Shown here in pieces: positions 22,304 through 49,745 of a stretch of DNA of 64,000 bases. Location of the stretch: positions 620,001 to 684,000 of the forward strand of contig CM075990.1 in NCBI GenBank assembly GCA_038087875.1, given 5' to 3'. The stretch is from Malacoraja senta. Lineage: Eukaryota. Below the pieces are notes generated by a model. It saw nothing but the letters and a program-made list of their open reading frames with translations, was not told the DNA's origin and ran no database searches. How positions within the stretch are numbered: the stretch's first letter is position 1; the number at the start of each line of letters is the position of its first letter. Made by a program: the position numbers and the translations under genes.

Positions 22304-25298
22304 TGTATTATCTTGTTCAGTGCACTTTATCAATCAGTCCAGTCGAAGTCCTTATTCTTATTCCATCCCATTCCTGTAGTTACTACACTATCCTATACAC
22401 TGTCTCTTTCTAAGAATTTTGGCAGGGAACCAGATCAACCTACTACGAAGGACCTCAGTGTTCCCGGGAGCTTCTTTGGGGAGTCAGTCTCAAAGGGTCT
22501 GACTAGTGCATTTTTCTCTCCCCATCTGATCCCGGTGAACCTGCTGCCACTTACTCAGTTGTTGGTTGAAGGTCCCAACGAAATCCCAGCTGGCTTGCCA
22601 AATGATAATGTTTGCATCTTAAAAAACAGACAAAATACAATGAATTAAAGTAAACCATACAAGCTTTTACTTTTTACGTCAAACGGGAGTGGCCAAAGAT
22701 GTTACAGTCCAGAAGAATCCAGTGATACTTTTGGTTCCCCCAAAATGCCACTTTAATTAACAAAAATCCTGGGGTCTTTTATACAAAATAGTCACATATG
22801 CAGAATATCAGGGGCATTATGTAATGTCCCAAAGTGCAACAGTCCAGTCTTAACATGTTGTTTTTCTGTGCCAGCTAGTGGCTATCCTGTTGTAAGTTAG
22901 TTCCATTTTCAGGCCTCTCTTATCTGATTGAACTTTTTCAACCAGAAAGCTTGCCTGAAAACACCATAAAATCTGGTCATGTGTTCCAGCAAGCAATACA
23001 ATAGCAATTAAATTATTTTCAATTGTTCCAATCCATCTCCCCAATATTCTCAATTTCAAATTCCTAGTATAAATATATACTAATAACAATTTCCCAAATT
23101 AACATTTTTAAAAATATATTGGCTTATCCACTCTCATCTAACACATGGCCAGTGTGGCATCCAAGTTTCCTTTCGAACTCAATTCAAAAGATAAGAAATA
23201 AGAAGAAAACAAATTTAAAACATCAATAAGACAAAGCAACCTACATTTTTTTTCATCTCTCCTCTGTTAAAAGTTAAGAGAAAATAAAGAATGAACAGTT
23301 AATTTTCATAGATTGGTAACACATTTGCTAAGAACAAAGGAAAATAAAATAACTGTGTGTAGCTCCGCCCCCATACAATTGCACTTTCTTAAAGGCACAC
23401 ACTACCTCTTGAAATACATGAGACTCTACAAAGATTTATCACATAAAAGAGCAAGCTCAGTCAATGATATCCTACTTCATCTGAAGTGTAGGATTAAATC
23501 AGCATTCATCCAAAACCGCTTCCACAAACAAGCAACAGTCTTCTCATTGTCACTTCAAAGAAAACATGCAACTCTTAATACTTTGATACACCCAAATACG
23601 TTCATACATTGGTCATAAATTCAACACATACTGAAGAACAGTCGCGATCCAAAACATACATTTAGACATTCTTATGGGATGCAAGCAGAAGCCTCCACGT
23701 GGCGCATCCCGGGCAATGCTGACGACAGAAACTGTACCACAGTGACTGACTGAAGTAGCCAAATCTGCAACCACCGTCAACCGGACCGTCAACCGTCACT
23801 GACCGACCGGAAAGACATGATATAGAAGATGGCCGGACACGAGGAAGAAGAAGAAATTCTTATATCCCTCTCAACCCTCTCCCTCCCTCCGTTATTGATA
23901 CTCCTCCTCTTAGACACTGCTTATTTCATAATAGCTTCAAGGTGTAAGCAACATTCCACACATTTCACATTCCCTTTCCTCCTTCCCAACATACACAAGT
24001 TTTATCCGAGAGCAGTATGCCAGAGGGGCGCAGTCCTCTCGTTTCCATAGTTTTTATAATATACAAAGGCGTCCCCTTGTAATTAATAACTCTCCCCTTG
24101 TCTGACAAGACCGTTCTGTTTATTAGAATCTTTGGTTCTGTGGGGACTAGTATAAAGAATTTGCAAGCTGCTGTGCGGGCAGTACTGTAAGCTTGGGCCT
24201 TCCCCTGGGAGACTGCTTTGTCGGGCCACTCATATAGGCATTGCACTTAATAATGGCCAGGTGGAGTGGGAGAACTGAGGCTTGCAGTGTGGGTATCGTT
24301 GTCTTTAAGTTGGGAAAGTCTTCTTGTTGGAATGAGAGAGTTAAAATGAGACGGATTAATCTGCTAGGAATGGGCAGGCATATTTCACAGTGGGATGGTC
24401 CAATTCCCTGTCAGTCAGGATCCTGGGCGCTGTGATTGGACAATGATCCAGATTGTGATTAGTCAGACTCCCTGTCACTCAGGGTCTTGCCACATGCCAC
24501 ACCCATCAATCTCCACAAACAAAGCCACAAACTCTCCTCTTTGTCTCTCTTCACCAGAGGCAAGCTCGCTGCTTTGTACCAAAAGTTATTCAAAGTTCGA
24601 AGGCAAGTTTGTTTTAAACAAAAATACAGGCTGTTGGCTGGGATTTAAAGTTCTTGAGCAGCCTTGATTCTCATGCTTATTTTTCTTCTGGTCTGTCTGA
24701 TGTTTCTCTCTCTGTTGCTCTGTGTTGTTTAACTCTTTCACCTGGATTCAATACTGCTCCTTCTTCCTCTCCTGCCTCAGCCCTTTCCCTTCTTCTTTCT
24801 CATCTGCCTTTTCAGTCTCCAAGTCGCTATCAGTATCATTTTTGTCTGGGGGTGCCTTCCCTGTAGGGGTGCTAGAGCCTCCCCCCATGGGATATTATAT
24901 GGGGGAGGTGGTCTACACTATTCCCGACTTTGTTCCTCACTCCCCACCAAATTTGTTCCTTCATCCCCACTCTTCTATAAACAGGGTCGCTATGCCAGAC
25001 AGGTGGTCTCCAGAAAAATTACCAGCACAGGGTTTGTTCTTAACTAATAATTGCTTGTTCTCTGAACTCTTCATATCGGCGCTTTCTTTCTCTGCCTTGG
25101 CCCTTAACAATTTGCAATTTTATGTTACCTAATTAGTCCCTATTCTCCCTGACTTTACCTGTTCTGCCCGTTCAGACCCCTTACTCTTCTAAAGGGCAGT
25201 ATCCACAGAATGCTTTGTCCATTCAAACCCCTTTCTCTTCCTAGGGTGGTATCCACATGATCTTGTTCACATCACACAGAATCTACTTTCTCAGATCA

Positions 25299-28200
25299 AT
25301 TTTACTTCGGAGTCACGTGAGTGATTCCGTGAAGAAGTCCCGCCAGAGCGCATGCGCTTCATTACGTCAGTCGTATTAGCGCAGGGAGGAACAGAGCTCC
25401 TCCAGCGGTAAGTTTGAAAAATCCTGCAGGTAAGTTTAAACTTACTTTTCAGGTTGTCCGTTGCAGGAATCTCTTCTCGCAGGTTCCTACTGGATATCAA
25501 ATTGAGCATAACCCGGTGGACCGCGGGGAAATTGTTGACCGCGGGGATGCCGGCTTCAGACAGCGGAAGTGCGGTAGCAGGCGGCCGGTGGGTTTTGCTG
25601 GTTGAGTCGCAGACAGAACGGTCTGCGACTCCCGAGGTTTAATTCGGGCTGCGGGGTTTTGTTGACCGCGGGTTATGCAAGCTACGGTCATGATAGACTG
25701 CGGGTGGCTGTTGGGCTTGTTGTTTCAAGTCGCTGACAGGGAGGTCAGCAACTCCCGAGAGGGCCGTGGGGTTCTCTAGACCGCGGGGATACCGGCTACG
25801 GTCGGCGGTAATCCCCGCGGTCGGACTTTGGCAGCCCATATGAAGGAAACCATGTGGAGCCTGGCCAGGAGGGTCCCCTCTGTCATATATGTATGTCCTC
25901 ACACGTGCAGTATCCTGAAATGGTGAGCCATATCAGGGCAGGTGATCAGGGGATTGCGGCAGCACCTGTGTTTTCAGGGCTGCTTACCAATTCCCTCAGT
26001 GGAGAGAAGTACAAGGGGTCAGTGTGTGGCTGATCCCAACCCCAACCCAGGAAGTGAGACTAGTGGTTTATCATCCTTATGTGTCTATGGCAGTAGCATT
26101 TTCTGCTAATTCTGTGGAGGTTTCAGGTGTAGGTCCAAGCTGGCCTTCAAGGAGAATTTACAATTCGCGCATCCCGGCATTGCTGCCCTCCAAATTAAGG
26201 ACGAACGCAAATTTTGGAAGCGTTCAAAAGGGTAGACATTATAGTTGCCACTAGGTCACGTTGTGACTATCATACTGAGACAGATGATTATCATTTACAC
26301 AATTTAGGAAATGGGAAGCCTTGTTGAGCTGTATTATCAGTCACCTGTGGGAGTTACACCAGGCGGCGTCATAGTAATTCTGCTCATTAAAGGGACTGTG
26401 CACGTTTTCTTCCCCAAGACGCCGGATTATTCATATTAAAAGTAAATAAATCCCAGATTTAACTGGGATGGGCGTCTTCATTCACATAATGTCTTTGCCT
26501 ATGACAAATAACTGTTAAGTTGTCGAACAACATGCTTGGTACAGAGGCATGTACAAGCAAATGGAAGAGATGGATGGTGATACCTGCTTCAGCTGCGATT
26601 ACTCCCACTCTAAAAGTGTGTCTAAGTTAGTATGGATTAACTCCAAACAGGAATCCGAACATGGCTATGTGCCGGGATCCCATGCTGAATGCATAAGGCA
26701 CGACGATCGCATGAGGGAAAGCAGCGGGCGTTGCCTCTAAAATTGCTGCTCAGTCGGAGATGGACTAGCCACTACAAGAGAAGTTGGCCAGCAGCATCAG
26801 CGATCTAATGGAAAAGAAAAAAACATGGTAGTGAATCTGCTCAGGGATGAAAAGGGTAGAGCTAATAGACAGCTGTATCAAGCTAATTGAGGAGCAACAG
26901 CCTTCAATTAGACAGGTGGCAAGTCTGCTTGGAAAATTAGTGGCAGCATTTCCGGCAGTTCAATATGGGCCATTGCACTACCAACAGTTACAGAGGGCAA
27001 AGGAACAGGCACTAAGGATACATTTGGGTCATTATAATAGACCCATGCAGTTATCAGCAGAGGCTGTTGCTGATTTGCAATGGTGGATTCAGCATGTGTT
27101 CAGTAGTTCGAGCATTATAGGTGCTTGAGCAGCCTTCCATGATTTTGCAGACGGATGTCAGTGCACTCGGGTGCGGTGCCACGGATACGAGTTCAAGCTG
27201 TGGAGGCAGATGGACTGAGCAACAGGGATCGCTTCTGCAGACATGGGGAATTAACTATTTAGAGCTTTTATGAGCTTTTTATGGACTTAAGGCTTATTGC
27301 TCTAACAAAGGTAACCGGCATGTTCAGTGTCAGATTGACAACACTACGGCAGTGGCATATATTAATCACATGGGTGGAATCAAGTCGGTATCTTGTGACA
27401 GATTGGCTAATCAAATTTGGGCCTGGTGTATTGATAAAGATATTTGGCTTTCAGCTATTTATCTACCAGGTAGATTCAAACTGTAGCAGACGCCAGGTCA
27501 CGAACGTTCCATGACAACACAGAGTGGATGTTGAACCAGGAGCTGTTCAATAATATAGTAGTTACATATGGAATGCCAGATATCGATTTGTTTGCATCCA
27601 GGCTTAACCACCTGCTGCCTAAATATGTTTCATGGGAACCAGACCCGGGGGCAGTTGCAATTGATGCTTTCTCGCTACATTGGGGTGGTATGTTTTAATA
27701 TATTTTCCCACCATTCTGCCTCATAGGTCTGCAAAAAATCAAGCAGGATGCCGCTTCGGGGGTGCTTGTAATACCTAATTGGCCGACTCAAGCATGGTTC
27801 CCTTTGATGTTACAGTTAGCAATCCAACCTCCTTTGGTGGTTCCCAAGAGTAGGAATTTACTGCAGCACCCGGTAACATGGGAAAGTCATCCGTTATGTG
27901 ACCGTATTGATTTGTTAATTTGCAGGTTTTAAGAAGGCCATACCTGGGGCGAGGACTATCTGGGCAAACTGTGGAATGCTCACTGCAGCCTAGAGAAAGA
28001 GTACTCAAAAGCAGTATATTACTTATGTAAAAAATGGGAGCAATATTGTGTACAAAATAATATTGACTATAGTACTGCAGGTATTGTGGATGTTTTAGAG
28101 TTCCTGTCGACACTCTACTATGATGAGGGGCTCAGTTTTTGGCGCCATTAATACAGCTAGAAGTGCTTTGTCCTCGTATCTTTTGATGGGGTCAGGGAAA

Positions 28201-29197
28201 GATCCTATTGGTTCTCATCCTCTCATAGCTCGATTGATGAAAGGAATTTTCAACTCCAAACTAAACCCAGGTATATGGCAATCTGGGATGTAAGTGTGGT
28301 CCTCAAGGTGCTTCGTCAGTGGGTTTCAAAATTGTGTTTTCAGCATATCCTACTGATTCATGTATATGTGTAAGGACACATTTATTACATTATATTGAAG
28401 CTACTTGGGCCTTAAGAAATGTGGAAACTGGATTGTTATCAGTAACAAGAAACCACACAAGAGAGTGTCAGTGCAGACTATCTCAAGGTGGTTAAAGCAA
28501 GTGCTGATTCAGGCAGGTATTAACACTGACGTGTTTACATCTCATTCCACTAGGGCAGCAGCAACGTTGGCGGCCATATTCTCGCAGCCGCCGGGTGGTC
28601 AAATGAATTGGTTTTTCAACATTTTTACATTGGCTGATTGCCGATCGGGGGCTGTTTGCTGATTCAGTATTAAGTTCTGTTTAAGTTTCCCCCCTCGCAT
28701 AGAGGGCTTACTGTTTGTTTTGATTATTCAAACAAATTGTTACTGCATGATATTCAATTTCATGTTTAACGCATTATTGATTATTTCTCATCCAGAGTCA
28801 ATCAATGCAGTGAGAAGCCGGGATTTGAATCTACGGCATAAAATCACAGAGCTTTGAACTCTTCACGGAATCACTCACGTGACTCCGAAGTAAAATAGTA
28901 AGATTAAACGAGAACTTACCAGTTTGAAGTTTGATCTTTATTTTATGAGGAGTTACGTTGGTGATTACGTGCCCACCACGCCCAACCCTCTCTCTCATAA
29001 AGGTCATATGGTAGTTCTCATGTTGCTGATCTTACTATGTTACTTCAAATATTCTGTTATCTGTGATTTCATACCGCTGCTTTGAAGATTGACGCGCATG
29101 CGCTCTGTCGGGGCTTCTTCACGTAATCACCAACGTAACTCCTCATAAAATAAAGATCAAACTTCAAACTGGTAAGTTCTCGTTTAATCTTACTATT
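25299..29197 (+). mobile_element. DIRS1-type tyrosine-recombinase retrotransposon, internally deleted (copy 1)
   Basis: Left ITR from 25299; ICR 28861-28971; right ITR plus extension 29091-29197; ATT at both ends; RNase H (LQTDVS, INYLEL, IDNTTAVAYINHMGG), methyltransferase-like (DLFAS..FPPF..PNWPTQAWF), YR (HSTRAAAT). Confidence 0.93.
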
Positions 29198-29243
29198 ATA
29201 TTCTATTTACCGTACTGCGCAGTCTTCTCGAGTAATCCTCCGG

Positions 29244-30056: not shown

Positions 30057-33000
30057 GTCCCCTTCTCTGTTTATATTCCCTTATTTCCTTCTCATCGTCC
30101 CAAATTGCAACCTCTCCTTCTACCTCCACAATTCCCTTGGAGCACTGCTTTGTACCGTCCGGGCCTGGATAGGTGTTAATCCCGGCAAAATTGGAGCAGC
30201 TAGGACTTCAAAATGGGTTAAGTTTCAGGGTTGCTGGGAGATTTGGTCAAATTGGAATTGCTCTCTGCAGAACTGGGACAAGCTGCAGAGAGGTGCCAGA
30301 GTGTCTGGAGCTTAGATACAAGTTGCAAGCAAAGAATGGGAAGATCTGCAAACCATGTCAATCTGGTGCAAAATTTGAGGAGAGAGTGTTTAAGTTAGAT
30401 ATTTGTTTTTGTTTAATATCGTTTTGTAAGAATCTGAATCGGGGTGGTTTGATCAGGGGTTGTACTCCTTCGATCGCTGCGCCGGGGGAGGAGTCATCCC
30501 GCTGATTGATTGCGCCACGAGGAAGATTAATTAGAGTGGGGTTTACTGGATGCTTATAGTTTATATTGGGGTGTGTTTTGGGTTATTGATAATTGGGGGA
30601 ATATTTTTTTTTTTAGTCATAGTTTTGTTAGCGTGGTTTGGGTTCGTTTGTTTGTGCCAACTTAAAGTTAATTAAGCGAGAGAGAGACTGCTGCGTGAGA
30701 GACTGCAAGTGGGAGTTAGACACTTTGTTTGAAAGTTTTGGAATTGAATGCTGTGATTGTGATTTAACTGATAAGAGAGTTGAAGAGACTGAATAGGAGC
30801 GAGTGTTTGAATAATTAAACAGGAGTGATTGGGAGATAGTTGAAAGGAAGCGATTGCTAGAGTAAGTGTGAATCGGAAAGATCGTTGACCATTGTGTGGG
30901 AGAAATTTCATTGACCTTGCAGTCTGAGAGTAGTAGTAAGAAAAAGAGGTGTTAGTGTCTGGAACCTTTATTTTACTATTTGTGTTTTGTCCATTGTTCC
31001 GAGATGGGGAATGTCTCGATCAAACAGATTGGAGAGCCCGATAAGGATAATTTGCGGGGAGCTTCCAAATGAGCGGATAGACTGAGAGAATTATCAGGGA
31101 AATAAATGCAATTTTAAAAGACCAACTTTGGCCGTTGGGGGGAATAAATTCTTTAATCGGATAAACTATATAGAGACGATCGTTAAAAATATGGGAATAG
31201 TGAAGAAGCAAACGAGTTAATTGAGATGTGGAAGATATTCTTCACTAAAAGAAAAATAAATAAATAAATTGTTTTGCTGCCACCCTAAGAATGGCGGCTT
31301 GTAAATTGGGAATAGGAGAAGACGATAGAAATGATCCTTCTCAGGACATTTCAGAGTAGGGACAAGGAGAACTAATAAACCAACAGCAGGAGCAGGAGAG
31401 AGTATCGTCTTTTGAAATGGAGACTGCTGAAACGTCTCTTAAATGGAAGTGCCGACGGAAATTAAATCGGGTAAATCGGGTAAGAATGAGAAAGGGGCTG
31501 CACACCTTGAAGGGACTTGTATGCCAGGGTGGGCAGAATTCTCGGAGTAGATATAGAGCACAGTATTCCTCACAGAACTCTCATGTTCCCAATTTGGAGA
31601 AACCGTGCGCAGCCTGCGAGCGGGGCACACGGGAGGAGTCAGCGTTAACTTTGGCTCCTCCTCTAAAATTAAATCTAACGTAGAAACATCAGGGAGAGAT
31701 CTTCTATCTCCAGGGGAGGACAATAGGGGAAACCAAGGAGCTAGAAAGAAGTCTTTGTAGTGGCCTGGATGAGGTCAGGAAAAGGCCAGATGCCAGGCAG
31801 GTTCAGAAGTCGTTTTAATGAATCATGGCAAACACACAGAACGCCCGCGAGCAGGACCCGGGAAACCCCGTGGGCAGACAATTGTCCCTGTCCCTCAAGA
31901 GCTGAGGGGGATGACCCAAGGAGTGACCTAACCGCCAGGGACCGCCACAACTTCATCCACATGGGTGCCAAAATTAATTAGGGATTCTAGTAGTGAAAGA
32001 ATAAAAGAATCTTTCTTGAAGTACCGGGATAAAACAATAGCCTTTCAGGGGCTGAGATAAGGGGAGAATATGGATGGATTCGTTTGGACATAAATAATAT
32101 TATGGTGTCAAACAATTCAGCACGGAAGAGGATTTAGTAAGAACACCCTGTAGACAATGTGTTTGTAGGGAGATGCCCGCATCATGTATAAATGTTCCAC
32201 AGACCACAGACAGTCAGACATCAAGGCAACCTGGTTCAACGGCAGCCTGGAGATTAGAGGTCCGAATAAAAAAGATAAGAACAAATGAGGATAAGGAGGA
32301 AGAAGACCTTATGCCTGGATAGACCTCCCATTTACAGAACCAACATTTCCTAGGTTTGCCTGGCGAGGTTGTAGAGCAATCCGGCCCGATCAGCGTTTTA
32401 GTTGTGGGGGACTAGGGCACTGGAGTCGTTCGTGTCCCATGAGAGAATATCATCAGGAAGGAAGGGGGCAGAGAAGGAAGCCATGGGGTCACGGAAACTG
32501 ATGGATTCCAAGGGGGTACCGAGGCTCCTGTGACCCTGAAGGTAGAGGATGGGGACGCTGGCAGGGGGATCAGAGGGAAGGGACATTCCAACAGTCCAAC
32601 CCATTTTTGGTAGCCCTAACCAGCCAGTTAGCAGCAATACCATCTGATAAAATAAAAGGCGTCCTCACCTGACCTAAGAAACAGTACTGTACATTACACA
32701 GGAACACCACCCCTTCCAAATAGGAGAAAATACATTGAATCTGACTCTCAGAGAACCCTCACTTAAGGCCGTGTCTTACCTGTTTGCGGTCATCGGCGGT
32801 GAAGCGCGGTGTAGACGGTAGCGAGGACCGCGCGGCAACGGCGAGAGCGTCGAGCCTATCCACCGGAGCATCGCGCGGATGCTGCGCGGGGGCCGAGTGA
32901 ATCAAATAGGGCGGGTCCCACGTGCTTGCGGTAGGTTAAAAAAAATGTTGATTTACCAGAAGCTTTTGTTGCACGTACGTCGGGTGATCATCGCACGGCC

Positions 33001-33785
33001 TGTCGAACGAGCATGCGATCCCGGACTTTGACGGGAGGGACGGAGGGAGGGGAACGTCCATTATTTTTTCAAGCTCGAGCCTGACGTCATTTGAAGCAGA
33101 GTCTGGAAATCTCGAGCCTGACGCCATCTTTATTTCAGGTAAACAAAAAGTAAAGGAATGTGTTTTATAAAAGTCTATTTTATAAATGACCACAGACTCG
33201 TGAGACAGGCCTTATAGTTAGCTTTAGAATTGCCCAAAAGATCTTTATTTCATCAGTTGAGTAGAACATGTTTACATTCTTAAGGAAATAAGCATATTTG
33301 GAGGGAAGGAGGGAGGGGGACGTCCATTTTGAGAGGAGTCAAGCTCGAGCCTGACGCCATTTGGAGCAGAGTCTGGAAAGCTTGAGCCTGACGCCATCTT
33401 TATTTCAGGTAAACAGAAGTCGCTGGCTATTTTTTGTTCTTAAAACAACATGTGTTATAGAAATGTGTTTTATAAAAGTCAATTTTATAAAGGGGGTTAG
33501 GGTCTAACAATTGTAGACCAGCAATAACAAAGTTAGTAATAACAATAGGATGATGTATATACAAAAATAAATCAGTGGTCACTCGTGGTTGTCTGCATGG
33601 AGTTTGTAAATCTGAGAACCATTTTCTTAGAGAGACCATGAACATAGAACAGTATAACACAGGAACAGGTCCTTTGGCCCACAAAGACCTGTCAACTCTC
33701 CACACGTTAAATTTTTCAGAATATTCACACTTATTCTCTCTTAATCTTGCAGCAAACTCGATTAGGACCTGTAAACTACTGCACA

Positions 33786-35084
33786 ATGGAAGACATTGAC
33801 ATTGCATTGCTGCTACACCAACATAATCTTCTCTTAGCAGCAGCCATCATGGTTGCAGGTCATCCGTGCAGCAGTTCAACAAAGAAGGTTATGAAGAAGA
33901 AGCCCAGGAAGAGGTCTGTGTGGATGAGGCCTTTGTTCCTGATGAGACCTACTTTGGGCCAGTATGAGACCATGATGACGGATCTGCAGCGGGTAGATGA
34001 TGCTGCCTTTAGAAATTTCACCAGGATCCCGCCTGACCTGTTTCAGGAGCTCAAGACACGAGTCGGACCTCTACTGCAGAAAATGGACACCGTCATGCGG
34101 AAGTCACTGGAACCAGGCCTGCGCCTAGCCATCACCCTCCGCTACCTTGGATCAGGGGATTCCTACAAGAGCCTGTCGTATAACTTCCGTGTGGCTCACA
34201 ACACCATCAGCGGTGTAGTCCGAGAGACGTGTGATGCCATCAACAAAACATATGATGAGCTTATTGACTGCCCAACTACACCAGACGGGTGGAGGAGTGT
34301 GGCGCACGGCTTTCAAAGCAGATGGAACTTCCTGCACACATGTGGGGCTGTTGACGGGAAGCATGTGGCCATCCGGTGTCCACCCGGGGGAGGTTCTGTG
34401 TACTTTAACTACAAGAAGTTCCATTCCATCGTGCTGTTAGCTGTGGTAGATGCAAACTACAACTTCATGTTTGTGAATGTGGGCACACCTGGCAATGCCG
34501 CAGATGGAGGGATCTGGAGAGAGACCTCTCTTGGGCAAGCATTGGAAGAAGGGAGAGCAGGCCTTCCGGATCCAGAACCTCTGCCTGGAGAAGACAACCC
34601 TGACATCCCCTACGCACTGGTTGGTGATGATGCCTTTGCACTCAGGCCATGGATGATGAAGCCATACCCTCACAGGGGGGTGTCAAGGGAGCAAAGGATC
34701 TTCAATTACAGGCTGTCCAGGGCTAGGAGGGTAGTGGAGAATGCTTTTGGTATCCTTGCTAGCAGATTCAGATGCCTGCTTACAACAATGGAGCAGGAGC
34801 CCGAGAATGTGCAGGCCATTGTCTACGCGGCATGTGTCCTCCATAACCTGATCCGCACCAGAGGTGCGTCTGCAGCCTTGGTGGAGGGTGACACGATGGA
34901 CAAACAGACAGGCGAAGTCACACCAGGTTCATGGAGAGCTGCAAGACCGGCATCACCGATGATGGCACTAGGGTCATTGCAAGGAAACACCAGCAACAGA
35001 AGAGCAAAGGAGATGAGGGACCATCTCTGTGCGTACTACAACTCAGAGCGAGGCAGTGTACCCTGGCAGGACAATGTGTTTTGA
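33786..35084 (+). CDS. Harbinger DDE transposase (HARBI1-like), 432 aa, single exon
   Basis: LAITLRYLGSG (HTH); GAVDGKHV; NYKKFHSIVLLAVVDA; LVGDDAF; FNYRLSRARRVVENAFGIL; ACVLHN; no stops; AATAAA at 35364. Confidence 0.95.
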   Translation: MEDIDIALLLHQHNLLLAAAIMVAGHPCSSSTKKVMKKKPRKRSVWMRPLFLMRPTLGQYETMMTDLQRVDDAAFRNFTRIPPDLFQELKTRVGPLLQKMDTVMRKSLEPGLRLAITLRYLGSGDSYKSLSYNFRVAHNTISGVVRETCDAINKTYDELIDCPTTPDGWRSVAHGFQSRWNFLHTCGAVDGKHVAIRCPPGGGSVYFNYKKFHSIVLLAVVDANYNFMFVNVGTPGNAADGGIWRETSLGQALEEGRAGLPDPEPLPGEDNPDIPYALVGDDAFALRPWMMKPYPHRGVSREQRIFNYRLSRARRVVENAFGILASRFRCLLTTMEQEPENVQAIVYAACVLHNLIRTRGASAALVEGDTMDKQTGEVTPGSWRAARPASPMMALGSLQGNTSNRRAKEMRDHLCAYYNSERGSVPWQDNVF

Positions 35085-35688
35085 GGATCAAAAGCAAACA
35101 GGGGATGTCAGGGTTGTGTTTTCACGGCAGAGGTACCCGATCATGAAGGCCCCAGATCTTACAAAAGTGCGATCTATGTATGTTGATGGATGGTTTTACA
35201 TTGCGAAATTATTGAATCTGTGTTAATAGTACCACCTACATCACCTATTTTAAAGTTGCCTGATCTTGAAAGGGCTTAAATGCCATTGTATTATTTTCAT
35301 GGCTTATAATGAAAATTTTTGTAATTCAATGCTATTCTATGCCTGTTTGTGTTTTATTTCTCTAATAAATCAATGATTTTGTATGTGAGATGCATTCCAT
35401 CATTTCAGGTTGTTTCCATATGAGATCTACGCCGCGATTAACAGACACTTTTTTCCACAATACTATATTAAATTTAAACTGTTTATTTAGTGGAAACAAT
35501 TAACATATTGAAAAACAAGCAATTCTTTTTAAATATGCAACACAATTCAACAGAACATTGTTCATTAGTGAAAGCAAACAAATAACGTCGTGAGAAAACA
35601 GTGAATTGAACGGTAATGTGCAACACACAAGCAGGCACAACAGTGAATTTTGGGGGCAACGTCACTCCTACGGCACATGTCATTCTTA

Positions 35689-37549
35689 TTAATTATATAA
35701 GTCTGCGTCTTCGTTGCTGGAGTTTGTGCCATCTTCGGGAACCTCAAATTGTACATGGAATTCGCCTTCCCCTAGCCTATCCATGCCACGTGATGAACTA
35801 TGTTGCCGTGGGGTGTGTCCACTGACATAGTGGGGGGGGGCTGCCATCCAGGGGTATGTCACAGGACGGTATTCCATCCTTGCCTGTGGGCAAAACACAT
35901 AAGCGTATCAATATGTATCGGTGCCAAACAAATCATATAAAACAAATCACAACCTTTCACAAGCTGTGTGTTAGAGAAAATCATGAGTCAGGCTGAAGAC
36001 TCAAAAATGTTTCACAGTGTACCTGGTGGGGATATTGTGGTGGCATCCTCGTTTGTTGCAGTGGCACTAATGGCATATGCCTTATCGGACTCTGCAACAC
36101 AAAGAAAACCGTAGTAAATGAATCATAGACGGCATTAAATTAAAACTTTTTTAATTTCAATGAACTTTGATTTAAATATTTTACTGGCTGCGGAAGTCTG
36201 TGCGCCCTTGCCAAGGACAATCCCTCCATGCTGTAACGTTGCCAATTTTCCTCAGGGATTAAGAACATCTCCTCCCTGAGGAACATTGCATATGCATGCA
36301 CAACTCTCTCATAGGACGTCCTTGGCTGTGAGAAAGAGGTGATCATGCCCGACGTTGTCTTTGCCTGTTCCATGATCTGCAACAAGAGAGTACAATCATG
36401 ATAATTATATTGTGGGATGAGATGGAGAAACGTGGAAGTAGGGCGGAGTGAAAGAGATTTGATGATGGGTAATCCAAAAGCACTTACATCCCTGAACATG
36501 TCCCGTTGCAGAGTTTGGACAGGCACCTCGCTATCTGACGCAGTTGTGCTGACCCGCTTCCGTCTTGCATGCTGCTGCAGTTCTACCGCAGTGCATGACC
36601 CGGATGGTCCATGTGAAGGTCCTTCTAGCGGATCAGGCTCACCCTCACTCGAGTCCGCGCACGTTGATGCACCCACAGTACACTAGAAGAAAGTGAATGC
36701 GTATCATACATGTGCAAGGCCATCCGGACGTAGCAGGGAAAGTGAACAAGTTATCATTGTTAAAAATGTTTTGTACTGACTTCCCAACTAATATTTATTG
36801 TCACATAATTTTCTGAGTTACTCACCTTCCTGCAACTTTCCTTCGTGTGCACTCTTACAATGTGGTCCCGGACGAACCCCCATTTGTCATATATCCACTG
36901 GTCTCTGTCAGTCAGTTTCCTACTGCCAGAGCCAGACTTGCTAAGACCTTGTGATATTTTGCCGAACCGTGTCCTCTGACTCTTTAGCCATTGGCACAGT
37001 TGGTCATCTGTGAAAAGATAGCATAAATGAAGATAAGTGTTGAGCAAATTATAATATGAATTTGAACCTCAATTACAAACACAGAAATGTAGATAAACTG
37101 AAAGATATGTACTTACAAGAGCAGGCAGGGAACTCCTTCGCCTTTTCTCCAATTATGAGGTTACGGAGACCCCTGTTCCTAAAATCACGGTTGGTCTTAT
37201 CGTACAGCTCATGGTGGGACTGATACCATTCCACCAGGTCCCCCTCTTGCTCTCGGGAAAAATTATATGGCTGTGAGCCAGACCTGTTCCACACCCATGC
37301 AGGGACATAAGCTGGAGTAGGACATGGACCAGCAGATGGAGAAGCAGATGGGGCAGCAGATGTAGAAGCAGTTGAGGCAGGAGATGGGGCAGGAGATGGG
37401 ACAGGTAATGAAGCAGGGGCAGGGGCAGGGGCAGGGGCAGGGGCAGGGCCAGTGGCTGGACCCTCCAGCACCTGAATTTTATTAGCACCCATACTAATAT
37501 TCTGTACTTTATCCTGCAGCGATCTCTTCACACTCCTTGTTCTCCTCAT
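35689..37549 (-). CDS. Harbinger MADF/Myb-SANT-like DNA-binding protein, 6 predicted exons, 421 aa
   Basis: Exons 37549-37117, 37007-36826, 36682-36488, 36376-36185, 36091-36023, 35883-35689; all introns GT-AG; 1266 nt in frame; MADF-like LVEWYQSHHELYDKTNRDFRN..QWLKSQRTRFGK..SGSG..WIYDKWGFV. Confidence 0.85.
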
Positions 37550-39371
37550 GTTGCTAGTCAACTGTCAAAATACTCCGTTTGAAAAACGCGGTAAAAATGC
37601 TACACTGTTGAAGTCTCAGATCTCGCGTGGTTTGGACGTGAACAGCAAAGAAAAAGGGCGGGCCGACTGCGATGACGTCATTTTGAATCTGATGGGCTGT
37701 GGCGGCAGCTGTCCAGATCGCGGCGCTGCAGCGGTGACTGTGCCTGCGGCCGTGCAGCACACGTGCGTCACTGGCGGCGGCACGTGCCTCACTGGTGGAG
37801 GCTGTGGCAGTGGAGGCTTGACGCACGGCGCTCGACCATACTGGCGGCGGGCCGTGCGAGCGGCCGTGCGCACTCGTGCATCACTGGTGGAGGTTGTGCG
37901 GTGAGTATAGTGTTTTCGACATTGTCGATTTTATTTTTGCACCGCGCGGTGTTGGGAACACCGTCGCACGGCCCGGGAATTGTTCTTTCTCACGAGTGCG
38001 CGGTCTATGGCAGCAGATTCTTCCCGTTTCGCCGCCAATGACCGCAGATTCGTGAGACAGGCCTTTAAGGGAAGAAGTACGATAGGGAAACATAGTAGCT
38101 AGCGGGAGGAGAGATAACAACATAAGGAATGGAAATGGCATTGGGGAGAGAAGAAACAAAATTACCATGCAGGAGGAATGGGAGTGGGGAAAGAAGATAT
38201 TGAATTAATGTATTGCTGAGTTTTATGCCTGCAGGACAGTATGTCAACAAGAGACTGTCTGGGGTGTGAGGTAAAAGAATGCACAGACCCCTAAGAACAG
38301 GAAGAAGCCAGCAAAAGGTAATGCAGCTCTCCAGAAAAAGGTGACCAGCAGGAAGAATTGATAGTGTCCTGCCCCTTTAAGACACTTGGGAAGGCCAGCA
38401 GGCAGAGCGACACGCTCCTCAGTATCTCCACTCCCAAGCAACTGAAACCATCAATAGAAAGGAGGAAGAAAATGACCTACCCTAGTGCCCAACTTTAATA
38501 TCACCTAGCTACTGAAGGAAAAAAAGGAAGGAGAATAAATGACACTTTAATCATCTTTGAAAGAAACAACGCCGACGACATAATGACTTCTGGGACAAAC
38601 CTCACAATAAAGTTTCAAATAAAATATTTATCTGTGGTTTGGAGTAAAATACCTGAATTGCATCTAAATTATGGGTTTTAGAAATAAATTTATAAATGTT
38701 GGACTCGGTCTCGAAATTGTATGGTGATGAATTGGAGGGACTAAAATTTTCAAGATTTGGAATAGACTTGTGGAATCTGACTTAGGACGAATTGGAGTTT
38801 GATTATCAACTGACATTGTTATTATCTCATCCCCAGAAAGATGGACAAAGATGGAAAGGATTATTCAAAGGGCATCAAGAAGGATGGAACTTGTGAAGAT
38901 CTGGTAACATGGAGTTACTTAGGGAATATGAGGGAATTAAAATCGGGATTAAAATTGGAATTAAACTCGAAAATAAAAATGGGAATGGTAATTGGAATTG
39001 GAATATAATTGGAAATGGTCAAAAGAGGAACTGTGAACAGCAGGACTTCCCTTTGAGAGACCGGATTAAGAAATTATTCAGCAGTTAAGAACTGTAAAAG
39101 CGAGAACCCCAAGACAAAGAACGAAGCCAACATAGTAAAAAGCCAACATAGTAATGAGCTAATAGAAAAAGAATCAACATAGTGGAGAATCAGCATAGTA
39201 ACGAGTTACCAGAGTGAGGAGTGCATACATAAATAAGAGGAGATACTGGAAGAAAGACTTGGTTAACTGTAGGGGGAGACTTGAATTGTGTTGGGAATAG
39301 CAGAGCCGATGTGTATTTGCCCGATGGATTTGAATTGTTTTACCTTTGATGGTAAAGCGGCTTATATTATC

Positions 39372-39952
39372 GGTACCCGGACGTGGCGCCGACAGACAAG
39401 AAGCCAAAGCAAAGAAGTCAAAGCCAAAGAACGGAATGGAAATGAGGCCGAAACCCCAATAAACCGTAAGTCCGAAAACCAAACGCCTACTAAACGAAAT
39501 TATGGGATGCCTAAATGCAAACTAACCGAAAGGGCGGGACGCCTAAATCCCAAGGAACCGAAAAGCTGCGTCGCCTAAAAGCAAACTTACCGAATCGCCG
39601 CTCTGTCGAAACACTACCTACCTGAAAGGGGGCGTCGCCTACAGGCCAAAGGACCTGGACCAATCGCTGACAAGTCCCGCCCCCCGACAACGTCAAGTCC
39701 GTTATTGGACTTTTCTGTTGAGCGGCAGTCGGTCCTTTGGCCTGTAGGCGACGCCGCCTTTTGGGTAGGTGGCGTTTCGACAGAGCGGCCATTCTGTAAG
39801 TTTGCTTTTAGGCGACGCAGCTTTTCGGTTAGTAGGCGTTTCATCTTCGGACTCTTTCGGTTTATTGTCGTTTCGGCCTCCCTTCCATTCCGTTCTTTGG
39901 CTTCGACTTCTTTGCTTCGGCCTCTCGTCCATCGGCGCCACGTCTGCACACG
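39372..39952. mobile_element. Long-palindromic non-autonomous DNA transposon (copy 2)
   Basis: Perfect 8-bp TSD ATATTATC at 39364-39371 and 39953-39960. Confidence 0.87.
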
Positions 39953-42414
39953 ATATTATCAAGGTGGAAATAAATTGTCCCTGGATTTGGCATTTTTGAT
40001 TGGACTTAGGATAAATGTAATAGTAAGGGAAATTGATTGTTTAAATTTGAACAGCTGGGAATTCCACAGGAATTGGAATGGAATTGTATTATCGGCTACA
40101 ATGCTGTGGGATGAGAAGAGGAAATGGGCATTGAAATTCGAAAAAGTAAATTGAAGGCTGAGACTGAATTTGGTTAAATTGGAATGTTTATCATGGTTTG
40201 CTTCAAATTAAAGTCACGCCAGTAGGGGAATCTGGACCGAACCCAGCTGAAATGTATATGATTACCTGTCATCAGATATACATAGTATAACACCGTGTGA
40301 GTATGAAGAAGGCTAATTAGTGTTGATCCTAGAATAATAAAGAATAAATTGGGGAATGGAATAGGGATATAGTAATAGATTCAAGATTCAAGAGACATTT
40401 ATTGTCACATGCACCAATTGGTACAGTGAAATTTGGGGTCACCATACAGCCATACGAATAAAAAAAGAACACAGAACACGATAGTCTTTAACATAAACAT
40501 CCCCACACAGCGGAATCAAAGTTTCCCACTGTGAGGTAAGGCACCAAAGTTCAGTCATCCTCCTCTTGATGTTCTTTGTTGTTCACAATGGCCTCTCGAG
40601 GCCCCTGCAGTCGCCGCAACGGTGGCCCAATGTTCAGGCCCTCTCGCCGGGATGATGGAACTCTGACGTCAGAACGGAGAACACCCTCAGCGGCTTGGAC
40701 TTCCGAATCAGCCACTTCTTACTGGAGACCGCGGATCCCGAAGTCCACAGGCTGGGCTGGGCGGAGATTCACACTGGCGGCCCTCGGCAAAGGGATCCCA
40801 GGACTCCGCGATGTTGAAGTCAGCGCTGCCCGTGGCTGGAAGCTCCCCAAACCACAGCTCCACGATGTTGAAGCAGCAGGCCCAACGCTCCGGAGCTTCA
40901 AACGGCGATCCCAGGTAAGGCATCGCCCGCTCCGCGATGAATCCAGTGCTGCGCCGCTGCTGAAACTCTGGTCGGTCTCCGGCAGGAAAGGCCGCGCCAA
41001 TCCAGTTGGTAGGCTGCGAGGGGGGGGAGCGAGGACGCGACTTGGAGAATAATCGCATCCTGGGAAACATTTTCCCCGTTACCCTCCCCACCTACCCCAC
41101 ATAAAAATACTAGGAAACTCCAACACATACTTTTTAAACAGACTAAAAATTAGAAAAAGATGGAAAAACAGACAGACTGTAGGCAGAGGCTGCCATCATG
41201 CGGCGCCCCTAGTGGAGACGGGTGCAATATAATAGGTTCAATAGATAATAGAATAGGAATAGGTTCAAATGAAATAGAAGTAACGAATGTGTGGGAAATT
41301 AAGAGTGCGTGATGGTAACTTGCTTTGTCCCAAACTTCTTAGGATTTTCTAGGGTTTAGGTTCAACTGTGGAAGATGATGGAAGACTGGGTAGGAACACG
41401 GATGGAGGGAATTCACGCCCATGAAAACTCGGGAGGTGAAGACTCCTCAGACAGAACTTGTGAAGTCATGCCCATGAAAATTCAGGACGCTTGTCAAGAT
41501 TCTGAGAAGAAACATCATCATCTTGTGTTACTGATGGATGGGAAATGCAAAGCACACTTATGTATATCTGGTTAGCTGATTATTGAGCCACTTTGGTTAT
41601 CATTAATGATGGGTTATCATTATGATTAAAGGAAGGAATGTTAATCCTGGCTAAATTGGAGCAGCTAGGACTTCAAAATGGGGTTAAGTTTCAGGGTTGC
41701 TGGGAGATTTGGTCAAATTGGAATTACTCTCTGCAGAGCTGGGACAAGCTGCAGAGAGGTGCCAGAGTGTCTGGAGCTTAGATACAATTTGCAAGCAAAA
41801 AATGGGATACTCTGCAAACCCTGTCAATCTGGTGTAAAATGCATAGAATGGATTGGATGGCTGCAAACCAGACATACACCTTATAAATAGTTGTAAATAA
41901 TGTTGCAGAGTTTGACTTTGCCAAGTGTTGATTGGATAAGGTGTTGAGCCTTGTCTGGGTTTTCTGTAAATCAGGGTAAATGTTTCCAAGTTGACTTCCT
42001 CTCGAAGTCCGTTTTCAATACAATGTATTGAACTGTTGCATCATTGGGTTAGGGGAATGCCTGTTATGTATGGGATTAATCGATATCTGTAATTGGGTTA
42101 TTGAGAGACCACCCGCATGTGGTTCGGCCCCTTGAGCACCCGGGACATATAAAAGTCTGCGATCACGAGGCTCAGCGTCGATCTTCTGGAAGAGCGCTCG
42201 GGACTGCATGAACTTCTGGTGTGCCTCTGTCTGAGCGAGGCCTAGAGGGCTTGAACAGGCGGACACGAGGATCGAACCGGCGGTGGGATAAGCACAGTGT
42301 GTGATCTGTGACGCGCTTTTGGTAAAATATAATTTAGTTGTTTCAAGTGCTTGATGCAGTGTTTTTACTGAAACTAGACTGGGGGGTAGCTTAGAAATGA
42401 GAAATTATCATAGG

Positions 42415-42853
42415 GAGATGCACTGCTTTGTATCACCCAGGCCTGGATTGGAGGGGGATTCCTTGGGTCTTTCAAGCTTGGATATAAGGTCGACTTTTTT
42501 CCTTGGAGTTTCTGGCTCTCATACTGCTTTTCCGTTCTCTCACCCTCTTCCCTTGTCATATTTACCACCTGGTATACTTTCCTCAACCTCTCTCCTTCCG
42601 CTCTAAAGAGCTTAAGTACATCTAACTCCTTTTCTCTCTTCTTTTTTTGCGTTTCCAACATATCTTTGGACCTATAATTCTTAATTGCCACTTCCATCTC
42701 GTCACACATATTTATATCAAAAGTGCCTTCCTTGGGCCACTTTGTCAGCAATTTTTCTGTTCTTTTTTCCCATTTCTCAGAGTGCTTTATAATGTCCTCT
42801 TTAGATACAGGGAATGTTTTACTTAGTAGTTCAACTGCAGTTACCTTACTCAT
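42415..42853 (-). pseudogene. gag: ERV-A gag N-terminus (matrix), copy 2
   Basis: MSKVTAVELL..WPKEGTFD..LYPSL. Confidence 0.8.
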
Positions 42854-45840
42854 TGTATTATCTTGTTCAGTGCACTTTATCAATCAGTCCAGTCGAAGTC
42901 CTTATTCTTATTCCAGCCCATTCCTGTAGTTACTACACTATCCTATACACTGTCTCTTTCTAAGAATTTTGGCAGGGAACCAGATCAATCTACTACGAAG
43001 GACCTCAGTGTTCCCGGGAGCTTCTTTGGGGGGTCAGTCTCAAAGGGTCTGACTAGTGCATTTTTCTCTCCCCATCTGATCCCGGTGAACCTGCTGCCAC
43101 TTACTCAGTTGTTGGTTGATGGTCCCAACGAAATCCCAGCTGGCTTGCCAAATGATAATGTTTGCATCTTAAAAAACAGACAAAATACAATGAATTAAAG
43201 TAAACCATACAAGCTTTTACTTTTTATGTCAAACGGGAGTGGCCGAAGATGTTACAGTCCAGAAGAATCCAGTGATACTTCTGGTTCCCCCAAAATGCCA
43301 CTTTAATTAACAAAAATCCTGGGGTCTTTTATACAAAATAGTCACATATGCAGAATATCAGGGGCATTAGGTAATGTCCCAAAGTGCAACAGTCCAGTCT
43401 TAACATGTTTTTCTGTGCCAGCTAGTGGCTATCCCGTTGTAAGCTAGTTCCATTTTCGGGCCTCTCTTATCTGATTGAACTTTTTCAACCAGAAAGCTTG
43501 TCTGAAAACACCATAACATCTGGTCATGTGTTCCAGCAAGCAATGCAATAGCAATTAAATTATTTTCAATTGTTCCAATCCATCTCCCCAATATTCGCAA
43601 TTTCAAATTCCTAGTATAAATATATACTAATAACAATTTCCCAAATTAACATTTAAAAAAATATATTGGCTTATCCACTCTCATCTAACACATGGCCAGT
43701 GTGGCATCCAAGTTTCCTTTCGAACTCAATTCAAAAGATAAGAAATAAGAAGAAAACAAACTTAAAACATCAATAAGACAAAGTAACCTACATTTTTTTC
43801 ATCTCTCTGTTAAAAGTTAAGAGAAAATAAAGAATGAACAGTTAATTTTCATAGATTGGTAACACATTTGCTAAGAACAAAGGAAAATAAAATAACTGTG
43901 TGTAGCTCCGCCCCCATACAATTGCACTTTCTTAAAGGCACACACTACCTCTTGAAATACATGAAACTCTACAAAGATTTATCACATAAAAGAGCAAGCT
44001 CAGTCAATGATATCCTACTTCATCTGAAGTGTAGGATTAAATCAGCATTCAGCCAAAACCGGTTCCACAAACAAGTAACAGTCTTCTCATTGTCACTTCA
44101 AAGAAAACATGCAACTCTTAATACTTTGATACACCCAAATACGTTCATACATTGGTCATAAATTCAACACATACTGAAGAACAGTCGCGATCCAAAACAT
44201 ACATTTAGACATTCTTATGGGATGCAAGCAGAAGCCTCCACGTGGCGCATCCCGGGCAATGCTGACGACAGAAACTGTACCACAGTGACTGACTGAAGTA
44301 GCCAAATCTGCAACCACCGTCAACCGGACCGTCAACCGTCACTGACCGACCGGAAAGACATGATATAGAAGATGGCCGGACACGAGGAAGAAGAAGACAT
44401 TCTTATATCCCTCTCAACCCTCTCCCTCCCTCCGTTATTGATACTCCTCCTCTTAGACACTGCTTATTTCATAATAGCTTCAAGGTGTAAGCAACATTCC
44501 ACACATTTCACATTCCCTTTCCTCCTTCCCAACATACACAAGTTTTATCCGAGAGCAGTATGCCAGAAGGGCGCAGTCCTCTCGTTTCCATAGTTTTTAT
44601 AATATACAAAGGCGTCCCCTTGTAATTAATAACTCTCCCCTTGTCTGACAAGACCGTTCTATTAGAATCTTTGGTTCTGTGGGGACTAGTATAAAGAATT
44701 TGCAAGCTGCTGTGCGGGCAGTACTGTAAGCTTGGGCCTTCCCCTGGGAGACTGCTTTGTCGGGCCACTCATATAGGCATTGCACTTAATAATGGCCAGG
44801 TGGAGTGGGAGAACTGAGGCTTGCAGTGTGGGTATCGTTGTCTTTAAGTTGGGAAAGTCTTCTTGTTGGAATGAGAGAGTTAAAATGAGATGGATTAATC
44901 TGCTAGGAATGGGCAGGCATATTTCACAGTGGGATGGTCCAATTCCCTGTCAGTCAGGATCCTGGGCACTGTGATTGGACAATGATCCAGATTGTGATTA
45001 GTCAGACTCCCTGTCACTCAGGGTCTTGCCACATGCCACACCCATCAATCTCCACAAACAAAGCCACAAACTCTCCTCTTTGTCTCTCTTCACCAGAGGC
45101 AAGCTCGCTGCTTTGTACCAAAAGTTATTCAAAGTTCGAAGGCAAGTTTGTTTTAAACAAAAATACAGGCTGTTGGCTGGGATTTAAAGTTCTTGAGCAG
45201 CCTTGATTCTCATGCTTATTTTTCTTCTGGTCTGTCTGATGTTTCTCTCTCTGTTGCTCTGTGTTGTTTAACTCTTTCACTGCTGGATTCAATACTGCTC
45301 CTTCTTCCTCTCCTGCCTCAGCCCTTTCCCTTCTTCTTTCTCATCTGCCTTTTCAGTCTCCAAGTCGCTATCAGTATCATTTTTGTCTGGGGTGCCCTTC
45401 CCTGTAGGGGTGTTAGAGCCTCCCCCCCATGGGATATTATATGGGGGAGGTGGTCTACACTATTCCTGACTTTGTTCCTCACTCCCCACCAAATTTGTTC
45501 CTTCATCCCCACTCTTCTATAAACAGGGTCGCTATGCCAGACAGGTGGTCTCCAGAAAAATTACCAGCACAGGGTTTGTTCTTAACTAATAATCGCTTGT
45601 TCTCTGAACTCTTCATATCGACGCTTTCTTTCTCTGCCTTGGCCCTTAACAATTTGCAATTTGATGTTACCTAATTAGTCCCTATTCTCCCTGACTTTAC
45701 CTGTTCTGCCCGTTCAGACCCCTTACTCTTCTAAAGGGCAGTATCCGCAGAATGCTTTGTCCGTTCAAACACCTTTCTCTTCCTAGGGTGGTATCCACAT
45801 GATCTTGTTCACATCACACAGAATCTACTTTCTCAGATCA

Positions 45841-48800
45841 ATTTTACTTCGGAGTCACGTGAGTGATTCCGTGAAGAAGTCCCGCCAGAGCGCATGCGCG
45901 TCATTACGTCAGTCGTATTAGCGCAGGGAGGAACAGAGCTCCTCCAGCGGTAAGTTTGAAAAATCCTGCAGGTAAGTTTAAACTTACTTTTCAGGTTTTC
46001 CATTGCAGGAATCTCTTCTCGCAGGTTCCTACTGGATATCGAATTGAGCATAACCCGGTGGACCGCGGGGAAATTGTTGACCGCGGGGATGCCGGCTTCG
46101 GACAGCGGAAGTGCGGTAGCAGGCGGCCGGTGGGTTTTGCTGGTTGAGTTGCAGACAGAACAGTCTGCGACTCCCGAAGTTTAATTCGGGCCGCGGGGTT
46201 TTGTTGACCGCGGGTTATGCAAGCTACGGTCATGATAGACTGCGGGTGGCTGTTGGGCTTGTTGTTTCAAGTCGCTGAAAGGGAGGTCAGCGACTCCCGA
46301 GAGGGCCGTGGGGTTCTCTAGACCGCGGGGATACCGGCTACGGTCGGTGGTAAAGTGAGGAGCCGGTGGCCGTCGGACTTCGGCAGCCCATATGAAGGAA
46401 ACCATGTGGAGCCTGGCCAGGAGGGTCCCCTCTGTCATATATGTATGTCCTCACACGTGCACTATCCTGAAATGGTGAGCCATATCAGGGCAGGTCATCA
46501 GGGAATTCCCTCAGTGGAGAGAAGTACAAGGGGTCAGTGTGTGGCTGATCCCAACCCCAACCCAGGAAGTGAGACTAGTGGTTTATCATCCTTATGTGTC
46601 TATGGCAGTAGCATTTTCTGCTAATTCTGTGGAGGTTTCAGGTCTAGGTCCAAGCTGGCCTTCAAGGAGAATTTACAATTCGCGCATCCCGGCATTGCTG
46701 CCCTCCAAATTAAGGACGAACGCAAATTTTGGAAGCGTTCAAAAGGGTAGACATTATAGTTGCCACTAGGTCATGTTGTGACTATCATACTGAGACAGAT
46801 GATTATCATTTACACAATTTAGGAAATGGGAAGCCTTGTTGAGCTGTATTATCAGTCACCTGTGGGAGTTACACCAGGCGGCGTCATAGTAATTCTGCTC
46901 ATTAAAGGGACTGTGCACGTTTTCTTCCCCAAGACGCCGGATTATTCATATTAAAAGTAAATAAATCCCAGATTTAACTGGGATGGGCGTCTTCATTCAC
47001 ATAATGTCTTTGCCTATGACAAATAACTGTTAAGTTGTCGAACAACATGCTTGGTACAGAGGCATGTACAAGCAAATGGAGGAGATGGATGGTGATACCT
47101 GCTTCAGCTGCGATTACTCCCACTCTAAAAGAGTGTCTAAGGTTAGTATGGATTAACTCCAAACAGGAATCCGAACATGGCTATGTGCCGGGATCCCATG
47201 CTGAATGCATAAGGCACGTCGATCGCATGAGGGAAAGCAGCGGGCGTTGCCTCTAAAATTGCTGCTCAGTCGGAGATGGACTAGCCACTACAAGAGAAGT
47301 TGGCCAGCAGCATCAGCGATCTAATGGAAAAGAAAAAATCATGGTAGTGAATCTGCTCAGGGAGAAAAGGGTAGAGCTAATAGACAGCTGTATCAAGCTA
47401 ATTGAGGAGCAACAGCCTTCAATTAGACAGGTGGCAAGTCTGCTTGGAAAATTAGTGGCAGCATTTCCGGCAGTTCAATATGGGCACTACCAACAGTTAC
47501 AGAGGGCAAAGGAACAGGCACTAAGGATACATTTGGGTCATTATAATAGACCCATGCAGTTATCAGCAGAGGCTGTTGCTGATTTGCAATGGTGGATTCA
47601 GCATGTGTTCAGTAGTTCGAGCATTATAGTGCTTGAGCAGCCTTCCATGATTTTGCAGACGGATGTCAGTGCACTCGGGTGCGGTGCCACGGATACGAGT
47701 TCAAGCTGTGGAGGCAGATGGACTGAGCAAGAGGGATCGCTTCTGCAGACATGGGGAATTAACTATTTAGAGCTTTTATGAGCTTTTTATGGACATAAGG
47801 CTTATTGCTCTAACAAAGGTAACCTGCATGTTCAGTGTCAGATTGACAACACTACGGCAGTGGCATATATTAATCACATGGGTGGAATCAAGTCGGTATC
47901 TTGTGACAGATTGGCTAATCAAATTTGGGCCTGGTGTATTGATAAAGATATTTGGCTTTCAGCTATTTATCTACCAGGTAGATTCAAACTGTAGCAGAGG
48001 CCAGGTCACGAACGTTCCATGACAACACAGAGTGGATGTTGAACTAGGAGCTGTTCAATAATATAGTAGTTACATATGGAATGCCAGATATCGATTTGTT
48101 TGCATCCAGGCTTAACCACCTGCTGCCTAAATATGTTTCATGGGAACCAGACCCGGGGGCAGTTGCAATTGATGCTTTCTCGCTACATTGGGGTGGTATG
48201 TTTTTATATATTTTCCCACCATTCTGCCTCATAGGTCGGTGTCTGCAAAAAATCAAGCAGGATGCCGCTTCGGGGGTGCTTGTAATACCTAATTGGCCGA
48301 CTCAAGCATGGTTCCCTTTGATGTTACAGTTAGCAATCCAACCTCCTTTGGTGGTTCCCAAGAGTAGGAATTTACTGCAGCACCCGGTAACATGGGAAAG
48401 TCATCCGTTATGTGACCGTATTGATTTGTTAATTTGCAGGTTTTAAGAAGACCATACCTGGGGCGAGGACTATCTGGGCAAACTGTGGACATGCTCACTG
48501 CAGCCTGGAGAAAGAGTACTCAAAAGCAGCATATTACTTATGTAAAAAATGGGAGCAATATTGTGTACAAAATAATATTGACTATAGTACTGCAGGTATT
48601 GTGGATGTTTTAGAGTTCCTGTCGACACTCTACTATGATGAGGGGCTCAGTTTTGGCGCCATTAATACAGCTAGAAGTGCTATGTCCTCGTATCTTTTGA
48701 TGGGGTCAGGGAAAGATCCTATTGGTTCTCATCCTCTCATAGCTCGATTGATGAAAGGAATTTTCAACTCCAAACCTAAACCCAGGTATATGGCAATCTG

Positions 48801-49738: not shown

Positions 49739-49745
49739 ATATTCT

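Follow-up and report, generated by a model that had tools for sequence, protein, structure and literature searches.

The window analyzed in this study, a stretch of 64,000 nucleotides from Malacoraja senta, contains a PIF/Harbinger element of 5.3 kb (32766-38064) flanked by a TTA duplication. The 3' UTR of its transposase gene holds a reverse-complement copy of part of the transposase ORF. The features are listed below in window coordinates.

32763-32765, no strand: left target-site duplication, 3 bp, TTA, as compared with the element-free paralogous site
32766-32805, plus strand: imperfect terminal inverted repeat of about 40 bp at the left end, inner boundary approximate
33786-35084, plus strand: intact PIF/Harbinger DDE transposase ORF, 432 aa (Pfam DDE_Tnp_4, E 1.2e-33; Plant_tran)
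34560-34611, plus strand: source arm, the putative switch template, codons 259-275
35085-35099, plus strand: left flank, in which carriers and non-carriers of the inverted copy are homologous
35100-35151, plus strand: 52-nt reverse-complement copy, in place of a 30-39-nt ancestral UTR segment
35152-35162, plus strand: right junction, three unexplained bases, after which the ancestral UTR resumes
35353-35369, no strand: two poly(A)-signal-like hexamers placed back to back, one on the minus strand at 35353 and the plus-strand AATAAA at 35364, presumed to be used
35689-37483, minus strand: convergent second gene, likely spliced, with a Myb/SANT-like (MADF) start; open frames, partial domain match, approximate limits
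38025-38064, minus strand: right terminal inverted repeat, inner end approximate
38065-38067, no strand: right target-site duplication, TTA

The element was assigned to PIF/Harbinger by its Tnp4/HARBI1-type DDE transposase, its terminal inverted repeats of about 40 bp, and its 3-bp duplication. The best named relatives of the transposase were HARBI1/ALP1-like proteins, the top one being a skate protein (73%), in line with a cartilaginous fish as the likely host, and the closest foreign proteins (P0001-P0003) were 61-74% identical to it. In the convergent gene, a MADF_DNA_bdg match covered positions 1-29 of 84 (E 8e-4; 20.2 bits against a cut-off of 22), and the longer frame gave no domain match at E 1e-3; the MADF domain appears to be split by an intron. 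An Rfam search over the element returned one match, to mir-1266 (E 0.42), which was far below threshold and outside the arms.

About 14 kb of the window is duplicated in tandem (14858-29204 and 30057-49745, 97% identical), and the element is present in only one of the two copies. The other copy has a near-empty site at about 17554, where a single TAA and one further difference were found. Because this duplicate without the element lies within the window, the element ends could be fixed. A 580-bp non-autonomous derivative at 1588-2170 matched both element ends at 81-86%. In two coded public runs from one study, X1 and X2, coverage of the element ends exceeded that of the middle by tens of times, and joints skipped 4.7 kb, indicating that miniature derivatives are abundant. 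Upstream of the transposase, a duplication with a 270-bp period (33034-33186 and 33300-33491) contains a second, internal version of the right terminal repeat at 93% identity (33185-33213, 420 bp inside the left end), and 32766-33213 could be mobile as a mini-element. A self-complementary repeat of 565 bp (71%) was found at 39380-39944, with relatives at 2-258 and 18869-19437.

A BLAST self-search of the whole 64-kb window matched the two arms, 34560-34611 and 35100-35151, to each other at E 3e-7. The match is 52 nt long, gapless, complementary at 43/52 positions, and ends abruptly at either side, and the arms are separated by 488 nt. The best ungapped antisense score was 25, whereas 300 dinucleotide shuffles of the UTR gave a mean of 9.3 and a maximum of 15, none reaching 25. 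This confirmed the preliminary description, which had reported a gapless reverse complement with 43/52 pairs and a perfect first 18 nt; the 18 nt from 35100 are fully complementary. The UTR arm begins at the 16th base downstream of the TGA stop (35082-35084) and, as had also been described, lies upstream of AATAAA at 35364, the first plus-strand poly(A) signal past the stop, which presumably serves the transposase transcript. The source arm encodes GLPDPEPLPGEDNPDIP, residues 259-275 of the transposase, within the DDE_Tnp_4 match (189-354). Its earlier placement in the catalytic core by the second Asp was correct as to the domain match; the target itself, however, is a proline-rich stretch five codons ahead of the GD motif, which we take to contain the catalytic Asp, and it excludes the catalytic codons.

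The genome contains at least 40 copies at 96-100% identity over a 1-kb query (40 of 326 candidates scored) and at least 150 protein matches of 76% identity or more (150 of 1234 candidates scored). A non-random sample of 110 own-genome loci was assembled from the 30 best DNA matches, including the window copy, and 80 loci chosen across the identity range of the protein matches; eight loci missing the 3' end of the ORF were dropped. Among the remaining 102 copies, all with an intact 3' end, the inverted copy was present in 66 and absent from 36, counts that are not independent events since the copies are related. The UTR arm was also covered by X1 and X2 contigs, which are fragmented and carry older, paired bases at 35118, 35121, 34568, and 34586. 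The presence of the arm in 66 of 102 copies and in these contigs excludes an assembly artefact; with the E value, the shuffles, the 66 copies, and the independent runs all against it and no observation in its favour, the idea that the 52-nt match reflects chance or an artefact has practically no probability.

All sampled copies more than 94% identical to the window copy carried the arm, indicating that the carrier lineage is the trunk of the family. Exact matching of junctions across the whole genome, which undercounts older copies, gave 100 matches to the new, arm-bearing junction and 44 to the ancestral one. In a tree of 86 rows built from the last 785 nt of the ORF, with the UTR arm excluded, all 50 carriers fell on one side of a branch with support of 98/98 and a length of 0.011; this tree omits 16 of the 20 youngest copies, and its bootstrap is incompletely settled. 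The carrier clade was nested in a ladder of non-carriers, so that one gain is needed, and the tree was ladder-like already before the arm was gained. Within this one genome, the one-trunk ladder extends over about 25% DNA divergence, suggesting that the family has long persisted by vertical descent, with a single lineage taking over each time; this pattern is seen more typically in L1 than in cut-and-paste transposons. An arm-less family, about 76% identical, is also young, with nearest neighbours at 98.0-99.5% and open frames in 7 of 10 copies.

No ORF-to-UTR inverted match was detected in any of the 36 own-genome non-carriers (E 0.01), nor in any of 44 usable metagenome Harbingers. The metagenome set comprised 80 loci at 29-64% identity, all distant and several redundant, of which the 44 usable ones reached the C-terminus and had a tail of at least 150 nt. 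One metagenome match (L130) was rejected as a terminal repeat with no ORF-to-UTR pairing. Judged from these sequences, the antisense arm is confined to a single sub-lineage and does not characterize the family as a whole.

We consider it probable that the antisense copy had one origin in one Harbinger lineage, likely through a single template switch, and that it has likely been a neutral passenger losing its pairing ever since. In the 10 nearest non-carriers, both flanks were homologous to those of the carriers and an unrelated segment of 30-39 nt lay between them, which points to a one-time switch of the 3-2-1-4 type; the switch points are ordered 3, 2, 1, 4 as 34560 < 34611 < 35099 < about 35155. 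The left junction shares one base and the right junction has three unexplained bases. The majority arm of the nine oldest carriers paired at 50/52 positions with the majority ORF arm of 10 sister copies, and two mismatches were common to all carriers; at birth the match may have been a perfect 52/52. The arm of the oldest carriers keeps a Val-codon base that is found in the ORF of 10 of 13 near non-carriers and only 1 of 66 carriers. The preliminary description had offered a fossil template-switch inversion as its alternative, and this proposal is supported by the single gain, the shared flanks, the replaced segment, and the stepwise, uncompensated loss of pairs.

In the proposed mechanism, synthesis would have broken off about 15 nt beyond the stop (point 1) when the polymerase moved to the opposite strand some 490 nt upstream; there it would have copied 52 nt (points 2 to 3) before returning to a site 30-39 nt further along (point 4), giving the order 3-2-1-4. 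A replication fork is one possible setting and the repair of a gap left by excision another, and the template may have been a different copy of the element; filler DNA and gap repair are linked to template switching. The nearest sister (L155) has a Glu codon where the arm template had Val, and one carrier (L153) has Val; either order is therefore possible, with a fork or with gap repair. The switched element would then have founded the later master lineage, and all later copies would have inherited the arm. Counting against a switch, a jump of 490 nt and a fragment of 52 nt are long compared with short-range events. Priming by a pre-existing quasi-palindrome was rejected: the ancestral slot contains two short words resembling the template, but in 8/8 copies its score was matched by 14-76 of 113 other antisense windows. 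Arm-to-arm conversion was likewise rejected, as no shared ORF-arm variant recurs in the UTR arm. An apparent second antisense insert after the stop in one copy (L038) was in fact a deletion joining sequence 683 nt downstream.

Pairing dropped from 50/52 (against the sister coding sequence) to 47 and then to 43 in the youngest copies. Mean pairs were 47.1 in copies 93-95.6% identical to the window copy (n = 19), 44.7 (n = 12) and 44.0 (n = 15) in the intermediate groups, and 42.8 in the 20 youngest, a fall along the ladder with a Spearman coefficient of -0.83 that is inflated by shared ancestry. From the oldest to the youngest copies, duplex energy changed from -92.7 to -78.7 kcal/mol, as compared with -117.6 for a perfect helix, and the longest perfect run shortened from at most 24 to 18. 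A special status for the 18-bp perfect run was rejected, its chance probability being 0.14; a shared ORF change breaks it in 10 of 62 carriers. The 66 carriers showed 49 distinct non-Watson-Crick states, 13 of them G-U and 36 mismatches, and no compensated change. The window copy has one G-U among its nine mismatches, and one of the six fixed UTR-arm changes keeps a G-U, against 0.17 expected per change.

The rate of change in the arm was compared with that of four-fold sites, 19/188 of which differ between the old and young majority rows and which may themselves be constrained. Four trunk changes were seen in the UTR arm against 5.3 predicted, two at four-fold sites of the ORF arm against 1.0, and six in both arms against 6.3. 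Pairing was thus lost at about the background mutation rate, suggesting that the arm is likely an ordinary scar. In 62 carriers, after removal of four segmental duplicates, the arm had a ratio of shared to singleton changes of 0.26, as compared with 0.34 for four-fold sites (p 0.80), 0.44 for the downstream UTR (p 0.49), and 0.13 for second codon positions; none of the differences from the arm was significant, with little power from five shared changes, so that weak selection on the arm would still be compatible with this test. In contrast, the arm changed more slowly than the adjoining AT-rich UTR (4/52 vs 56/262 between the old and young majority rows, p 0.02) and had fewer shared variants than the downstream UTR (5/52 vs 97/263, p 7e-5). 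Singletons, which arose after insertion, were also 2.3 times rarer in the arm than downstream. In carriers, the change rates were 0.044 for the arm, 0.049 for the ORF, and 0.126 for the downstream UTR, a wider gap than in non-carriers (ancestral slot 0.100, ORF 0.099, downstream UTR 0.133).

The AT-rich region between the genes (35152-35415) changed at about twice the four-fold rate along the trunk (56/262 vs 19/188). Despite these fast surroundings, the poly(A)-like hexamers at 35353 and 35364 were kept in 5/5 subgroup majority rows. In the ORF columns of the 66 carriers, transversions outnumbered transitions among both singletons (374 vs 279) and shared variants (51 vs 38), an excess that would correspond to a weak CpG signature or to assembly errors.

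The preliminary description had proposed that the mRNA could fold back and that the helix would be a built-in dsRNA for self-regulation. The first part agrees with the predicted fold of 33786-35390, in which the summed pair probability of the two arms is 43.1 of 52, and an mRNA extending to AATAAA at 35364 is predicted to form the helix. The second part is not supported, as the segment was missing from 36/36 own-genome sister copies and from 44/44 usable metagenome Harbingers and no covariation was seen, both being outcomes that the description itself had named as refutations. A related explanation accepts the same switch and adds that the arm was then kept: the helix would dampen transposase output through slower translation, ADAR editing, Staufen-type decay, or a weak siRNA source, and would thereby aid persistence of the lineage. 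It is consistent with pair probabilities near 1 in the predicted helix, with a z of -3.2 for the fold of 34400-35390 against 20 shuffles, with the position of the carriers as the trunk and their excess of junction matches (100 vs 44, older copies undercounted), with the slower change of the arm relative to the downstream UTR, and with the fixation of no indel in the arm of 66 carriers. Each of these points has to be set against the lack of compensation, the neutral share of G-U pairs, and the neutral rate relative to four-fold sites. Moreover, the ladder shape predates the gain, a young family without the arm exists, the ancestral slot likewise changed at the ORF rate and below the downstream UTR, and helices inside ORFs are normally unwound by ribosomes. 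We therefore regard this dampening, by whichever route, as unlikely. Since template switches can found functional stems, it retains a small probability, and a mild effect of the arm would be compatible with its slower change than the adjoining UTR. With the same low probability, one slip would have given an active vertebrate DNA transposon a fold-back mRNA brake, and the braked variant would have founded every later wave.

The helix might instead be harmful by feeding host silencing, with the master lineage selected to break perfect runs below Dicer length. Eight of the nine mismatches in the window copy are true non-pairs, and the longest perfect run, at most 24 in old copies, is down to 18 in young ones, as such selection would produce; however, the rate of change was not raised (four arm changes against 5.3 expected), and a one-step deletion would have sufficed, yet none was fixed in 66 carriers. 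This explanation is less probable still than dampening. Overall, nothing in the sequence record appears to mark the helix as having been kept, and a template switch followed by neutral decay is the reading that we prefer.

As a neutral scar, the arm records a long template switch within an active transposon cleanly and with a date, and it serves to diagnose the youngest subfamily; it also cautions against taking an inverted repeat as functional simply because it is strong and present in many copies. If the arm did act as a brake, it would be a self-limiting mechanism new for Harbingers within the literature searched. The approximately 100 dated copies, ranging from 49 to 42 pairs, would then form a natural allele series in which a cis-antisense regulator was born and then tuned down.

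Cis-antisense to a transposase message is found in IS10 (RNA-OUT) and IS200 (art200), as separate conserved RNAs that block the ribosome-binding site. The Harbinger arm is likewise antisense to the transposase message, but its target lies in the middle of the ORF and it is not conserved. Inverted duplications of transposase sequence have reportedly been described in a study of Ac/Ds. Mu killer of maize is a hairpin of roughly 4 kb (PMC3440606). Both systems resemble the arm in being inverted duplications of transposase sequence and a possible source of dsRNA against the element. However, they consist of kilobase hairpins at one rearranged non-autonomous locus that silences in trans, whereas the Harbinger arm is 52 bp, imperfect, and inside the active master. 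The long, near-perfect dsRNA of Mu killer is absent from the arms, whose 52 bp have a longest perfect run of 18 in young copies and at most 24 in old ones. PIF/Harbinger elements are described as having a DDE transposase, a second Myb-like gene, TIRs of 25-50 bp, and a 3-bp duplication (PMC9179366); the element analyzed here resembles them in its transposase, TIRs, and duplication, may do so in its second gene, and differs in its antisense arm. Neither an antisense copy in a Harbinger UTR nor a self-limiting brake of this type for Harbingers was found in the literature searched, the scope of which excluded subscription journals and Repbase.

Template switching has reportedly been advanced in another study as an origin of RNA stems and miRNAs. 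That template switches can found functional RNA stems is also stated in a further source (PMC8794818). The Harbinger stem was similarly made in one event, but, unlike the kept or repaired stems described there, it has a loop of 488 nt and shows neither repair nor compensation. The arm is classed here as a template-switch mutation inside a PIF/Harbinger element; the compensation and the presence in relatives by which a conserved RNA helix is judged were both absent. In work on four-point switches, the 3-2-1-4 class together with its mirror accounts for 31% of high-confidence human-chimp events and requires no prior repeat (Loytynoja and Goldman 2017, PMC5453318). As in those events, unrelated bases gave way to the reverse complement of nearby sequence, and a single step with little or no prior similarity yielded a new inverted repeat, the Harbinger arm having one shared base at its left junction. 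Template-switch fragments in great apes have a median length of 12 and do not exceed 128 (Walker et al. 2021, PMC7954356), and, compared with most reported four-point switches, both the Harbinger fragment (52 nt) and its jump (about 490 nt) are longer. Unlike the switches reported there, the Harbinger event affected a mobile element, whose spread multiplied it about 100-fold, and its decay can therefore be followed one step at a time.
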